Both the position numbers and the translations under genes were made by a program. DNA of 64,000 bases from Legionella massiliensis (GTDB lineage Bacteria; Pseudomonadota; Gammaproteobacteria; Legionellales; Legionellaceae), in assembly GCF_000756815.1 (NCBI RefSeq), contig NZ_CCVW01000002.1, positions 238,157-302,156 of the forward strand, written 5' to 3'. The notes under the pieces were generated by a model. The model saw only the letters and a program-made list of their open reading frames with translations. It was not told the origin of the DNA and made no database searches. This document shows positions 3,772-33,306 of the stretch, one piece after another (position 1 is the stretch's first letter; each line of letters begins with the position of its first letter).

Positions 3772-4045
3772 CCCCGCGGCTTGACCCATAGGTATCTATA
3801 CAAGTGTCTGTAATAGATGAGCTCTGTCCCCCTAAGGCACGTCATCCAGAGCACAGCGAAGGATCTCCTGAATGTGGCACGGTGCTAATCCCGGAGATCC
3901 TTCGCTGCGCTCTGGATGACGTAGTGTTGAAACAAGGAAGGACGTGACCTTATTACAAACACTTGTGTAGATACCTATGGGCTTGACCGCGGGGTCTATC
4001 AAGCTTTCACTACTCCCGAGGTCAAGCCGCGGGAATTCGAGTTTT
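3772..4045. repeat. Composite nested palindromic element: a type A hairpin at 3840-3920, inside a ~30-bp inverted repeat (cccataggtatctatacaagtgtctgtaat / attacaaacacttgtgtagatacctatggg), inside D-like gcggcttgaccc arms
   Basis: Read directly. Near-identical to the copy at 40793-41025. Confidence 0.85.
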
Positions 4046-4165: not shown

Positions 4166-5125
4166 ATGCTAAACAAACTTTCAAATTATCAACCAACTCA
4201 GCCATCCCTATGGCAAGGACGCAAAGATAGTCTGCCCGGCGAACGTTTTTTTCAACATGTTAATCTCGTCGATTTGAACAACCAATCCTTAGCAGAATCA
4301 TCGAATGCAACCATTCTCCTTGGATTTTGCAGTGACGAAGGCATACGCCGAAATGAAGGACGTATCGGTGCTAAATCAGGTCCCCTTGAATTAAGAGAGC
4401 AACTGGCAAAGCTTTCTTGTCACTCCCAGCAACAATTTATCGATCTAGGTAACATTGTTTGCGAGCACGATCTAGAAGGTGCGCAAGAGCAGTTTGCCGA
4501 ATTAATTAGTTATTGCCATCTGCAAGGATATAAAACTCTAGCCTTTGGTGGAGGACATGAAATTGCCTGGGGGCACTTTCGCGGTTTAACTTCCCATTAC
4601 CCTAAACTTGGCATCATTAATTTCGATGCTCATTTTGATTTGCGCCCTCTAAAAGATGGACGTTTTGCTACTTCAGGCACTCCTTTCCGTCAAATTTCAG
4701 AATATTGCTTGCTAAATCAACTACCTTTTGATTATTGTTGTCTCGGAATCCAGAACATTGCCAATACTCGAAGCTTATTTGACTGTGCAAAAGAACTAAA
4801 AGTTTCTTATCTGTGCACAGAACGAATCAATCAAGAAAGCTTTGCCTGGCAAACTGCGTTTCTGGATGAGTTTATGTTACGCCATGACTATATTTATCTA
4901 AGTCTTTGTCTTGATGTATTTGCCGAGTGCTTCGCACCGGGGGTCAGCGCTCCTCAAGCTACGGGTCTAACACCCTGGCAGGCCCTCCCACTGTTGAAAT
5001 ACATCCTACAAACTGGCAAAGTGGTAAGTCTTGATGTGGCTGAGCTCTCGCCTCCCTTAGATGAAGGGAAAAAAACTGTGCGATTAGCCGCAAGTCTTGT
5101 GGCAGAGTTGCTAGATTACTATTAA
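4166..5125 (+). CDS. hutG: Formimidoylglutamase (arginase/ureohydrolase family)
   Basis: 319 aa. Mn-binding motifs GGGHEIAWGH, DAHFD and SLDVAE. Placement divergent from hutI favours HutG over arginase. Confidence 0.7.
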   Translation: MLNKLSNYQPTQPSLWQGRKDSLPGERFFQHVNLVDLNNQSLAESSNATILLGFCSDEGIRRNEGRIGAKSGPLELREQLAKLSCHSQQQFIDLGNIVCEHDLEGAQEQFAELISYCHLQGYKTLAFGGGHEIAWGHFRGLTSHYPKLGIINFDAHFDLRPLKDGRFATSGTPFRQISEYCLLNQLPFDYCCLGIQNIANTRSLFDCAKELKVSYLCTERINQESFAWQTAFLDEFMLRHDYIYLSLCLDVFAECFAPGVSAPQATGLTPWQALPLLKYILQTGKVVSLDVAELSPPLDEGKKTVRLAASLVAELLDYY

Positions 5126-5142
5126 AGCAAGGAGTGTTATCG

Positions 5143-6324
5143 ATGAAAAAATCCATGCTGTATGCAGGATTAATGACTATTTTAAGTGCAACAGCGTATG
5201 CCGAAGATAGTAACAACCTCAATACTATACAAACAAATCCTGGAGCTACTAATGCTGTGCAATTAGCCATGCAACAGGGAGTACAACTAGCATCTTCTGA
5301 TGCAGTGCAAACACCCGCTAATAGCACTGTCAAAACACCTGCTAACTCTGAAACACAGCCCGCAGCAGTCAGTACACCAACTTCCGCCACCGGCGCAGCA
5401 CCAACCCCGGCTTTGGATACCTCAACAGCACCAGCAGCACCAGCAGCGACAGGTGCGACTACGACACCAGCGACGGGGGATGTTACAACGCCAGCGGCAG
5501 GTGCTGCTACGACACCAGCAGCAGGTACTGCTACGACACCAGCGGCAGGTGCTGCTACGACACCAGCGGCAGGTGCTGCTACGACACCAGCGGCAGGTGC
5601 TGCTACGACACCAGCGGCAGGTGCTGCTACGGCACCGGCAGCAGGTGCGACTACGACACCGGCAGCAGGTGCGACTACGACACCGGCAGCAGGTGCGACT
5701 TCGACACCGGCAGCAGGTGCGACTACGACACCGGCAGCAGGTGCGACTACGACACCGGCAGCAGGTGCGACTTCGACACCAGAAGCAGGTACGACTACAA
5801 CACCAGCAGCAATCAAGCCAGCCCAACCCTTGGATTGTAGCTACCGTATTCCGCCAGAAACTTCGCATATCGAACAAACTATTGTGATGAAATGGGCTGA
5901 GAAGGCTGCAGAGCAATCCTTTGATTTTGACTTCAACAACCTTGATAAACAAATTTCCCTATTAAAGTCTTGTTATACTGAGCAGGGATGGCAAGGTTTT
6001 AATGATGCCTTACAAAAATCAGGAAACATCAATGCCATTAAAACTCAGCAACTTACTGTAAGTTCGATGGTAAATGGGGAAGGCAAAATTACTGAGCTCA
6101 AAGATAACCAATGGAAAATTGCTATCCCAATGCAGGTGGTTTACCAAAATGATAAGGAAAAATTAACTCAACCGCTAACCATCAATCTGATTGTTGGACG
6201 CAAAGTCTCTGGCGACTTAGGTATTATGCAAATGATTGCTATACCTCGCCAACCAATGACCAATGCAGCTGGTGGTGAGAACCCTCAAGAGACAACTACC
6301 ACAACGACTACACAGAAGCCCTAA
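5143..6324 (+). CDS. Secreted protein with a Thr/Pro/Ala-rich tandem-repeat linker and a C-terminal IcmL/DotI-like domain
   Basis: ATG at 5143 lies 9 nt after an AAGGAG ribosome-binding site. The ORF track starts at a GTG at 5134 that overlaps that site. Signal peptide MKKSMLYAGLMTILSATAYA. About 15 copies of TTPAAGA(A/T) are encoded by 24-bp tandem repeats at 5449-5810. The C-terminal ~170 aa (GWQGFNDALQKSGNINAIK...WKIAIPMQVVY...LTINLIVGRKV...LGIMQMIAIP) match my recollection of the IcmL/DotI periplasmic domain pattern. Confidence 0.6.
   Translation: MKKSMLYAGLMTILSATAYAEDSNNLNTIQTNPGATNAVQLAMQQGVQLASSDAVQTPANSTVKTPANSETQPAAVSTPTSATGAAPTPALDTSTAPAAPAATGATTTPATGDVTTPAAGAATTPAAGTATTPAAGAATTPAAGAATTPAAGAATTPAAGAATAPAAGATTTPAAGATTTPAAGATSTPAAGATTTPAAGATTTPAAGATSTPEAGTTTTPAAIKPAQPLDCSYRIPPETSHIEQTIVMKWAEKAAEQSFDFDFNNLDKQISLLKSCYTEQGWQGFNDALQKSGNINAIKTQQLTVSSMVNGEGKITELKDNQWKIAIPMQVVYQNDKEKLTQPLTINLIVGRKVSGDLGIMQMIAIPRQPMTNAAGGENPQETTTTTTTQKP
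5449..5810 (+). repeat. Perfect 24-bp tandem repeat array, ~15 units, in two sub-families
   Basis: Repeated units gctacgacaccagcggcaggtgct and gcgactacgacaccggcagcaggt, read directly. This array produces the artefactual overlapping ORFs at 4959-5816(-), 5300-5887(+) and 5422-5952(-). Confidence 0.9.
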
Positions 6325-6379: not shown

Positions 6380-6415
6380 ACCCTCTCCCCCACGCTACGC
6401 GCGGTGGAGAGGGGA
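6380..6415. repeat. Type G fragment (ctctccc...cgcgcggtggagagggg)
   Basis: A related copy lies at 8060-8095, next to a type F fragment. Confidence 0.5.
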
Positions 6416-6441
6416 TAAATGTAAGATCAAGTCTCCCACCC

Positions 6442-6515
6442 CGTCATCCTGAGCGCAGCGAAGGATCTCCGGGATTAGCACAGTTGCTACACTCAGGAGA
6501 TCCTTCGCTGCGCTC
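6442..6515. repeat. Type A palindromic mini-element (cgtcatcctgagcgcagcgaaggatctcc...ggagatccttcgctgcgctc)
   Basis: About 75-86-bp near-perfect hairpin. Copies at 3840-3920, 6442-6515, 15168-15238, 19597-19681, 28075-28147, 33234-33306, 40867-40948 and 42340-42421. Confidence 0.85.
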
Positions 6516-6718: not shown

Positions 6719-7672
6719 TTAGCCAAAGTGCAGAACATAACGGATTATCCCGTTTGTACCCTGAGAATGGTTTCTCGCGCCCCGCTCAATGTATAAGTTA
6801 AAAAATACAAACTGATTTTTGGTTAAACCATAAAGCATTCCAGGACCAATGGCCCAAACCTTTTCTTCTCTCCCAGCAACACCCTGACCATTTACACGAG
6901 TATTGGTAAATTGATTAAACACATAGCTATTGATACCTAAGTGAAATTTTTCTGTAACTGCAAAATCAGTTGCAATGTTAGCAAAGACAGCTTGTCCTGC
7001 TTGTGTGGAATGCACCGTGGGACCAAAACCAGATGGATCTTTATTTTTTGCATTCCATAGATAATGCAGGCGCATAGATGCCGCCCATTTGGGTGTGATC
7101 CACAAAGTTGATGCCCAATAAGGGTTAATTGACCAGAAATTAGCGCTGGGGTTGATCGAAAATTCAGAGTCATAATGACCAATTGGCACAATGACATCAA
7201 ATTCAAAACGCTGAACAAATAAAGGACCCTGACCATTTTTACGCATAATTGGGTCAAATTGTAAGGCTGGACCTATCGTCAAATCACCAATACCATCAGC
7301 CGCTCTTAAGACGGGGTTAGGTAATCCATCATTGACCCTAGCATGTAATACTGAAGGTAGGACCGCTGAAATTCCCAGATTCGCACCTAGAACTTTCTTG
7401 GTTGATAAATAAATTAACTGCAAGATATCCGCAGTGACGCGCAGATCATTTTCCGGAAAAGGCAGCTTATTTCCATTCTTATCATTAAGTCGGTTAGCTG
7501 TGTAATACTGGAAGTAATTTTGAAAATAAAAACCCGGGCCAGATGGCGGACCACCATCCAAAAAGCTGGTATATCCGAGATTAACAACGGGTTCATCGTA
7601 AGCTAGAGCAACTGATGGTAAGGTCAGACACAGTAAGCCAGCAAAACTTGCTAATAGCTGATTCCGTTTCAT
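6719..7672 (-). CDS. Outer-membrane beta-barrel protein, possibly of the MetA-pathway/phenol-degradation-like OMP transporter family
   Basis: Start reassigned to ATG 7672, which has an AAGGA ribosome-binding site 6 nt upstream. Signal peptide MKRNQLLASFAGLLCLTLPSVALA. Gly/aromatic-rich alternating pattern. C-terminal ...RYVLHF. Confidence 0.5.
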   Translation of the reverse strand: MKRNQLLASFAGLLCLTLPSVALAYDEPVVNLGYTSFLDGGPPSGPGFYFQNYFQYYTANRLNDKNGNKLPFPENDLRVTADILQLIYLSTKKVLGANLGISAVLPSVLHARVNDGLPNPVLRAADGIGDLTIGPALQFDPIMRKNGQGPLFVQRFEFDVIVPIGHYDSEFSINPSANFWSINPYWASTLWITPKWAASMRLHYLWNAKNKDPSGFGPTVHSTQAGQAVFANIATDFAVTEKFHLGINSYVFNQFTNTRVNGQGVAGREEKVWAIGPGMLYGLTKNQFVFFNLYIERGARNHSQGTNGIIRYVLHFG

Positions 7673-7984
7673 TATTATCCTTAATATCAATCTAAGATAA
7701 GAATTCGATTATTTATCAATAGGATAATCAGTTTTATATTGGCTGGGAATAGTTTTTGTAATTATTAGGCTAACACATTCGCACTGAGTTCTGTGCGCTA
7801 GCACAGGTTCTCGAACTGATGTATCTTCACAAACTTGTAACTCAAAAAAATAGTTACTTATTAAATCATTATGCTCTTTTTTATGTCGTTCCTTCGTAGG
7901 CAGGAATAACAGGAAAATAGATCAACTTATGCGATTAACATACATTTTTTTAGTCATACATCTGAATTTCAAATTCGTGGGGAT

Positions 7985-33094: not shown

Positions 33095-33306
33095 CGTCAC
33101 GTCATCCTGAGCGCTCCAGCCCCTTTGGGGCAAACATCGATAAAGACCTCGTCATCCCAGGGATCTCTGGGATTAGCACAGCGCTACACTTAGGAGATGT
33201 CTCTCTACGTTCGACATGACGTACGTCTTTGGGAGTGCAGCGAAGGATTTCTTGAATATAGCACAGTGCCAATCCTGGAGATCCTTCGCTGCGCTCAGGA
33301 TGACGG
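33095..33306 (-). repeat. Type B (reverse orientation, internally deleted) fused to type A (33234-33306)
   Basis: Read directly. The B copy lacks ~25 bp relative to the consensus. Confidence 0.8.

Follow-up and report, generated by a model that had tools for sequence, protein, structure and literature searches.

DotI/IcmL (Lpg0449) has an N-terminal transmembrane helix and a partner, DotJ. Type IV secretion requires it, and its gene lies upstream of dotH/G/F (PMC4454188). Domains of the VirB8 family oligomerise and contact other parts of type IV secretion systems (T4SS; PMC4454188). Two DotI-like proteins of Legionella pneumophila are recovered from culture supernatants. In strain 130b, Lpg0708 is SignalP-positive and had been detected there earlier. 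It is 3.4-fold higher in wild-type than in lspF-mutant supernatants, with a very high intensity, and was placed in Table 1 of that study, which gathers previously detected exoproteins confirmed as type II secretion system (T2SS) substrates (PMC12239567). Lpg0120, also signal-sequence-bearing, is 5.4-fold higher in wild-type than in T2SS-mutant supernatants (PMC12239567). A comparison of Dot/Icm systems in 58 species includes DotI, not the IcmL-like paralogs (PMC6761968). Here, we describe an IcmL-like gene of Legionella massiliensis found in a 64-kb stretch of its genome (contig NZ_CCVW01000002.1, positions 238,157 to 302,156). This whole stretch is called the window below, and coordinates refer to it.

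We consider it likely that the gene encodes a Legionella ortholog of Lpg0708, that is, a soluble exoprotein with a conserved DotI-fold domain and a disordered linker lengthened by an in-frame minisatellite. The protein family is already known, annotated and partly characterised. What is mildly new here is the recurrent and independent expansion of minisatellites in the linker across the family. We found no description of it, and no report of the linker as a variable-number tandem repeat (VNTR), in the literature searched.

A DotI-like domain in a probably exported protein

The precursor has a calculated mass of 39.2 kDa (37.1 kDa for the mature form) and a pI of 4.8. Its C-terminal part matches Pfam PF11393 (T4BSS_DotI_IcmL) with 72.5 bits for a cutoff of 27.7 (E=4e-20, residues 243-356), and with 74.9 bits when the domain is used alone. 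Sequence matches in the PDB are DotI (3WZ4, E=1.9e-12), Lpg0120 (5CNL, E=3.5e-7) and R64 TraM (3WZ3, E=3.6e-5). The AlphaFold2 (AF2) model of the domain shows four helices on a five-stranded sheet, with a predicted local distance difference test (pLDDT) value of 88 and a predicted template modelling score (pTM) of 0.79. Search for structural similarities of this model using Foldseek returned 3WZ4, 3WZ5, 5CNL and 3WZ3 as top matches, followed by CagV, VirB8 and TrwG. Superposition on DotI and 5CNL gives template modelling (TM) scores of 0.86-0.88 and root-mean-square deviations (rmsd) of 1.6-2.4 Å. An IcmL/DotI-like C-terminal domain had been proposed in a first-pass annotation of this DNA, and the profile score, the sequence match to DotI and the predicted fold all bear it out. 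Two cysteines of the domain, C232 (5836-5838) and C277 (5971-5973), are invariant in alignments of 19 and 46 family sequences. A disulfide bond between them probably pins the folded domain.

Identification of the protein as a true IcmL/DotI was rejected. The NCBIfam equivalog NF038072 scores 71 bits for a cutoff of 175. The N-terminus is a signal peptide of the cleavable type, without a transmembrane anchor. Finally, the locus contains neither dotJ nor dotH/G/F, and the neighbours of the gene are housekeeping genes.

The first-pass annotation called the protein secreted, in agreement with its Sec signal peptide, which is kept in the orthologs, and with the recovery of the L. pneumophila ortholog from supernatants. 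Cleavage by signal peptidase I would occur after A-Y-A, before E21. No lipobox, transmembrane segment or C-terminal sorting signal was recognised in the sequence, and the maximum Kyte-Doolittle score over 19 residues is 1.17, under the threshold of 1.6. As the short signal peptide, with its A-x-A site, is the sole hydrophobic segment, the mature N-terminus is expected to be free.

These features bear on the idea, also put forward in the first-pass annotation, of a stalk presenting the domain at a variable distance from the membrane or the cell surface. An uncleaved signal anchor or another tether would then retain the protein, the Pro/Thr-rich repeat would form a rigid stalk, and the number of repeats would tune the reach of the domain. 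Pro/Thr-rich segments do tend to be extended and the length of the linker is highly variable between species, but no anchor was found: the h-region has only ~14 residues and is followed by the A-Y-A motif, and no segment reaches transmembrane-grade hydrophobicity. Besides, the L. pneumophila ortholog is present in culture supernatants. Moreover, 18-residue linkers occur in orthologs having the same domain, so that no particular reach is required. A tethered stalk is therefore highly improbable in our view.

The gene was assigned to the orthologous group of Lpg0708 (UniProt Q5ZXM3) on the basis of synteny, size and annotation. A search with the domain retrieved 436 homologs, annotated as 'IcmL-like protein' or 'DotI/IcmL/TraM family protein'. 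The named ones all belong to Legionella, Tatlockia or Legionellales. Coxiella-like genomes, which the first-pass annotation had also expected, are not found among these relatives. A survey of one genome per species (GTDB representatives) gave 68 loci with conserved flanking genes. The gene keeps its position: it follows a hutG-like gene, SDR and ABC-F genes are found in its flanks, and in the pneumophila clade one neighbour encodes FadL. In L. norrlandica, the sister species of L. pneumophila, an arginase-family gene is followed by the IcmL-like gene and then by an OmpP1/FadL gene. In L. pneumophila, lpg0707 is OmpP1/FadL (PMC10132064) and lpg0708 is described as 'IcmL-like' or 'IcmL homolog' (PMC9112007; PMC4549902). 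Orthologs of the pneumophila clade have 320-362 residues, a size class that matches the 34.6 kDa of Lpg0708. The family shares one architecture, composed of a signal peptide, a T/P/A/Q-rich linker, a DotI-like domain with its two cysteines and a low-complexity tail.

Two loci of the survey deserve a comment. The L. norrlandica ortholog is split in the linker region into two overlapping open reading frames (ORFs; L056, 5764-6159 and 6108-6599), and the corresponding database protein P0193 (163 residues) is a truncated C-terminal piece. The split reflects either pseudogenisation by frameshift or an error of sequencing within the low-complexity stretch. Another ortholog (L067) lies on a 14-kb contig of a metagenome-assembled genome (MAG) labelled Bdellovibrionaceae; the label is probably a binning error.

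As an ortholog of Lpg0708, the protein would be exported by the Sec pathway, and signal peptidase I would remove its first 20 residues. The signal peptide suggests this export, and the L. pneumophila ortholog supports it. The DotI-like domain would then fold in the periplasm with its C232-C277 disulfide, before T2SS-dependent release from the cell, a step shown for the L. pneumophila ortholog only and transposed here by orthology. The folded domain would be the conserved, selected and functional unit. Its fold suggests that it is most likely a protein-binding or oligomerising module, like DotI, TraM and VirB8.

Another possibility is that the protein remains soluble in the periplasm and assists or modulates the type IVB system Dot/Icm, for instance as a DotI mimic binding DotI/DotJ partners, and that its presence in supernatants results from leakage. 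The domain is indeed closest to the periplasmic domain of DotI, by sequence and by fold, and the contacts made by VirB8-family domains within T4SS, mentioned above, would fit such a role. Lpg0708 is down-regulated along with dot/icm genes in water (PMC4549902). Its enrichment in supernatants is only 3.4-fold, and the same lists include the envelope proteins DotA, DotC and IcmX (PMC12239567). However, the IcmL-like gene is beside dot/icm genes in none of the 68 loci, being instead coupled to the hutG-like gene, and a profile search of all six frames found no second DotI-like gene in the window. The protein also lacks the transmembrane segment by which DotI pairs with DotJ. In addition, Lpg0708 is among the confirmed T2SS substrates and is very abundant in supernatants (PMC12239567). 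Overall, a periplasmic modulator seems unlikely and we favour an exoprotein.

An in-frame minisatellite in a disordered linker

Residues 21-231 (~211 residues) separate the signal peptide from the domain. Ala accounts for 31% of them, Thr for 25% and Pro for 12%, and just 10 are charged. In the full-length AF2 model, residues 21-230 have pLDDT values below 55 and no secondary structure except for a helix at residues 39-47. A similar Q-L-A-containing motif is found ~20-30 residues past the cleavage site in close relatives (P0001, P0005, P0012, P0014 and the L. gresilensis protein). The helix and its Q-L-A motif may correspond to a short linear motif.

Tandem Repeats Finder (TRF) detects a single array in this region (5450-5811; period 24, 15.1 copies, 89% matches, 0% indels, score 444). 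The 15 units show 10 distinct sequences and fall into an A-type, GCAGGTGCTGCTACGACACCAGCG, and a B-type, GCAGGTGCGACTACGACACCGGCA. The B block is itself a 72-bp higher-order duplication (5641-5712 versus 5713-5784, 2 mismatches). The longest perfectly periodic tract covers 104 bp (5528-5631). The GC content is 64.4% in the array versus 44.0% in the window. The array thus displays the features of a coding minisatellite: its units are head-to-tail, highly identical, in frame and of a length that is a multiple of 3. The first-pass annotation had correctly given the end of the ORF at 6324, the coordinates and period of the array, its number of copies, its division into two sub-families and its peptide motif. 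The ~15 perfect repeats it announced are indeed 15 in-frame units, but they are not perfect, and its five or six identical units reduce to three of A-type and four of B-type.

The array also accounts for three long ORFs that overlap the gene. Both A-type and B-type units are free of stop codons in five of the six frames, which is why these ORFs are open. None of the three has a Pfam match, and we rejected them as real genes, in line with the first-pass annotation, which had placed them exactly and regarded them as artefacts of the repeat.

To compare linkers, we measured the stretch between signal-peptide cleavage and the first cysteine in 56 full-length orthologs. Their domains are 44-85% identical to that of the window protein (median 61%), with linkers ranging from 18 to 238 residues (median 59.5) and tails from 2 to 99 residues. 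The linker is T/P/A/Q/S-rich in every ortholog. The architecture, which the first-pass annotation called unusual, is therefore that of an annotated and published family, with such a linker in every member compared. With 211 residues, the linker of the window protein is the second longest, behind that of L. maceachernii. A ranking of the window protein as the longest of the family was discarded, as it came from a listing without members of 300 residues or more. Indeed, the 436 homologs listed are all shorter than 300 residues, though orthologs of 323-426 residues exist in the collection. Members dominated by low complexity seem to be filtered out of the listing, which biases length surveys made from it. 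The same bias is seen in a search with a pneumophila-clade domain, where even the self-match of the L. moravica query is missing.

Arrays are detected by TRF in the linker region of 18 of 67 genes. Their periods are 15, 21, 24, 42 or 63 bp, and their unit peptides differ. Examples are L. drozanskii (21 bp x 11, TPATGT(T/A)), L. feeleii (24 bp x 7.8, QGTPTPAP), a Legionella MAG (L038; 15 bp x 14.5, QQPAA), L. gresilensis (21 bp x 5, TVTTQPA), L. nautarum (42 bp x at least 3.3, ATTPASSTATPAAG) and a Tatlockia MAG (21 bp x at least 4, APAVQAP). Because the periods differ, these arrays must have expanded separately. A loose TPAxG theme in several units makes a common ancestral motif possible.

The closest relative found (P0001, 286 residues) is 83% identical to the window protein over the C-terminal 170-residue query and 71% identical along the entire protein. 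Their alignment contains two gaps inside the array, one of 13 and one of 73 residues, with conserved anchors on either side. Since the extra length falls inside the array, the expansion is lineage-specific, and since the array contains blocks of identical units, it is recent. The 24-bp unit would have been amplified in two bursts, giving the A block and the B block, the latter with its 72-bp duplication. This amplification would have added ~86 residues compared with P0001.

The disordered region would evolve by replication slippage or unequal recombination because the constraint on it is compositional only. As the units are multiples of 3 bp, changes in copy number would produce steps of 8 residues in linker length rather than on/off phase variation. 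The family seems to follow a general pattern, in which the folded domain is tightly conserved and the disordered region ahead of it has given rise to in-frame minisatellites again and again. The C-terminal tail is a second, independently variable disordered region of the protein; it has grown to 86-100 residues in pneumophila-clade loci (L024, L025, L032, L033 and L034) and in L022.

The linker, with 62 Ser/Thr among its 211 residues, could also be seen as a host-facing, possibly O-glycosylated, mucin-like module. The recurrent expansions would then reflect diversifying selection on length or epitopes in different amoebal hosts, and the domain would act outside the bacterium or link type II and type IVB secretion in the periplasm. 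We find this very doubtful. The way the repeat changes corresponds to a mutational process that is ordinary for low-complexity sequence.

Variation in repeat number

Exact-protein look-up found no identical protein on record. No other genome of the same species was found either, the highest values being 82% amino acid identity in a metagenome scan and ~79% nucleotide identity for the flanks of GTDB representatives (L. drozanskii, L. maceachernii and L. nautarum among the 68 loci). As a proxy for strain variation, members of 90%-identity ortholog clusters, all from other species, were aligned. In L. feeleii, a 331-residue and a 323-residue form are exactly one 8-residue unit apart. The two L. 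drozanskii forms, of 376 and 390 residues, are 100% identical outside a gap of 14 residues (two 7-residue units) in the array. Forms of 326 and 310 residues from Legionella sp. isolates differ by two 8-residue units, and the order of the units also differs. The full-length sequences of array-free orthologs are invariant, in L. maceachernii (426 residues, 3 sequences) as well as in L. israelensis (262 residues, 6 sequences).

These unit-step differences match slippage or unequal recombination and, as a proxy, support the view that linker length varies. Linker length would drift by gain and loss of minisatellite units, as shown between species and, with the caveats given below, within three other species. 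The variation between strains predicted by the first-pass annotation is thus seen in array-bearing orthologs of other species, where assembly artefacts may contribute to it, the window's own species being sampled once. The array is a candidate VNTR typing marker. The Lpms13 marker, whose unit we take to be 24 bp, was considered for this gene and dropped, the paper found giving no gene location.

Two contigs of the survey end inside linker arrays. One is that of L. nautarum (L005, 1-140; 42 bp x 3.3, 93% matches) and the other that of the Tatlockia MAG (L008, 1-90; 21 bp x 4, 95% matches). The deposited proteins are 'partial' for this reason. More generally, such arrays hamper short-read assembly and annotation, through contig breaks, 'partial' proteins, shadow ORFs and the loss of long members in homology searches.

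The array of the window could itself be an assembly artefact, collapsed or expanded, so that neither the 15 units nor the A and B blocks would represent the true allele. A 360-bp array with a 104-bp perfect tract exceeds common short reads, contigs stop within the arrays of L. nautarum and the Tatlockia MAG, and the 390- and 376-residue forms of L. drozanskii may be two assemblies of one strain. Nevertheless, the 10 distinct unit variants, ordered A then B, offer anchor points for assembly. The reading frame is also uninterrupted, alignment of the flanks with P0001 is clean and the window is a contiguous 64 kb. An artefact is quite unlikely on these grounds. Still, because the array is longer than typical short reads and two assemblies break in such arrays, the copy number of 15 is provisional, unless the window was obtained from long reads.

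Several points weigh against our interpretation of the protein as an exported Lpg0708 ortholog with a length-variable linker. The evidence for type II secretion comes from L. pneumophila, where the 3.4-fold enrichment is modest and the envelope proteins DotA, DotC and IcmX are in the same proteomic lists (PMC12239567). The authors of that work caution that some of the new proteins of their Table 2, to which Lpg0708 does not belong, may be indirectly influenced by the T2SS (PMC12239567). No reported function for any member of the Lpg0708 family was found in the literature, and the binding or oligomerising role, though the most likely one, is drawn from the fold. The cleavage site of the signal peptide was judged by eye. 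Copy-number variation in the window's species is transposed from orthologs of other species. The differences between these orthologs come from independent assemblies, possibly not of distinct strains, and repeat collapse could mimic the pattern. In particular, the two L. drozanskii forms could derive from a single strain of which one assembly has collapsed the repeat.

Genomic context and comparison with known systems

The features of the locus are collected in the table. The start codon is ATG 5143, because the alternative GTG 5134 overlaps the AAGGAG site.

Table. Features of the IcmL-like gene, its linker array and the adjoining sequence (window coordinates)
Feature	Coordinates	Strand	Description
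hutG-like gene	4166-5125	+	Arginase family (formimidoylglutamase/hutG-like); Pfam PF00491, E=3e-56
Shadow ORF, 285 residues	4959-5816	-	Repeat-derived artefact; also covers the hutG-like 3' end
Ribosome-binding site AAGGAG	5129-5134	+	8 nucleotides before ATG 5143; direct sequence reading
IcmL-like (Lpg0708-type) coding sequence	5143-6324	+	393 residues; ORF list, 436 homologs, 68 syntenic loci
Sec signal peptide MKKSMLYAGLMTILSATAYA	5143-5202	+	Residues 1-20; basic n-region, h-region of ~14 residues, Ala at -3 and -1
Non-repeat part of the T/P/A/S/Q-rich N-terminal region	5203-5448	+	AF2 disorder, composition
Short predicted helix VQLAMQQGV	5257-5283	+	Residues 39-47; AF2; only helix of the disordered N-terminal region
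Shadow ORF, 195 residues	5300-5887	+	Repeat-derived artefact
Shadow ORF, 176 residues	5422-5952	-	Repeat-derived artefact
In-frame minisatellite, 15 x 24-bp units	5449-5808	+	Encodes (A/T)G(A/T)(A/T)T(T/S)TP(A/E)
A-type block, 6 units (AGAATTPA)	5497-5640	+	3 identical units at 5545-5616
B-type block, 6 units (AGATTTPA / AGATSTPA)	5641-5784	+	4 identical units
DotI/IcmL-like domain (VirB8/NTF2-like fold)	5836-6246	+	Residues 232-368
Low-complexity C-terminal tail (…ENPQETTTTTTTQKP) and stop codon	6247-6324	+	Last 25 residues; pLDDT 43-55

The stop codon of the hutG-like gene lies 17 nucleotides before the ATG of the IcmL-like gene, and no promoter-like site was found between the two genes in the window. 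In 34 of the 68 loci, distant Legionella species included, a hutG-like gene ends 17-25 nucleotides upstream of the IcmL-like start (L003, L006, L007, L009-L015, L017, L018, L020-L027 and others). L. maceachernii, L. drozanskii and L004 have no hutG-like gene at this locus. The tight spacing in half of the loci and the lack of a promoter-like site make co-transcription likely. The pair looks like a conserved two-gene operon associating an enzyme of the histidine-catabolism type with a secreted DotI-fold protein. The other neighbours in the window are a DUF3298/PdaC protein, an amidohydrolase (hutI-like), an SDR, an outer-membrane channel, a YkuD L,D-transpeptidase, an ABC-F protein, tdh, kbl and PCMT.

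The channel is encoded by the next gene downstream (6719-7690, - strand) and belongs to Phenol_MetA_deg (PF13557), a family found there in only 4 of the 68 loci. The downstream channel is OmpP1/FadL (PF03349) in L. norrlandica (L056, 6669-7841) and L. moravica (L024, 7048-9059), where an insertion sequence (rve integrase) adjoins its gene. lpg0707 (FadL) is reported to be recurrently mutated among clinical L. pneumophila isolates (PMC10132064).

A dispersed element resembling repetitive extragenic palindromes or miniature inverted-repeat transposable elements (REP/MITE-like), with the core CATCCTGAGCGCAGCGAAGGATCTC, has 11 matches in the window for 0 expected. Its positions are 3843-3918, 6445-6469, 19601-19676, 28119-28143, 33278-33302, 40870-40945 and 42343-42418. 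Four occurrences are inverted pairs that form hairpins of ~76 bp, and copies flank the hutG-like/IcmL-like gene pair on both sides. A separate G/C-rich palindrome is present at ~6385-6416.

Nothing in these results overturns current understanding. The Lpg0708 family, conserved throughout the Legionellaceae sampled, is among the few cases in which a protein of DotI/VirB8 fold has gone from the secretion machine to a soluble exported protein. The window protein and DotI/IcmL (Lpg0449) have PF11393 in common, and the periplasmic domain of DotI (3WZ4/3WZ5) shares the fold, with TM scores of 0.86-0.88, an rmsd of 1.6-2.0 Å and 25-27% identity. The window protein differs from DotI by its cleavable signal peptide, its long disordered region and a gene located outside the dot/icm locus. 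R64 TraM and the VirB8 family (CagV, TrwG, Brucella and Agrobacterium VirB8), in which the NTF2-like fold acts as an oligomerising assembly factor of type IV systems, share this fold with the window domain at 6-23% identity. In contrast to the window protein, they are membrane-anchored machine components encoded in T4SS loci. Lpg0120, 'IcmL-like' (5CNL), is also a stand-alone, signal-sequence-bearing protein of DotI fold (TM 0.86-0.88 to the model), but it is a separate paralog of 19.5 kDa, with 20-21% identity and without a long low-complexity linker. As compared with the Lpg0708 group of the pneumophila clade, the window protein has its lineage-specific array of 15 units and a tail of 25 residues versus about 90-100.

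As to the repeat, the collagen-like VNTR protein Lcl offers a further analogy. In DotG, a region of pentapeptide repeats, also in frame, varies in repeat number as the linker does, in a different protein and with a different unit (PMC6761968). The VNTR markers used in multiple-locus VNTR analysis (MLVA) of L. pneumophila likewise vary in repeat number between strains, in different proteins and with different repeat units (PMC7690423).

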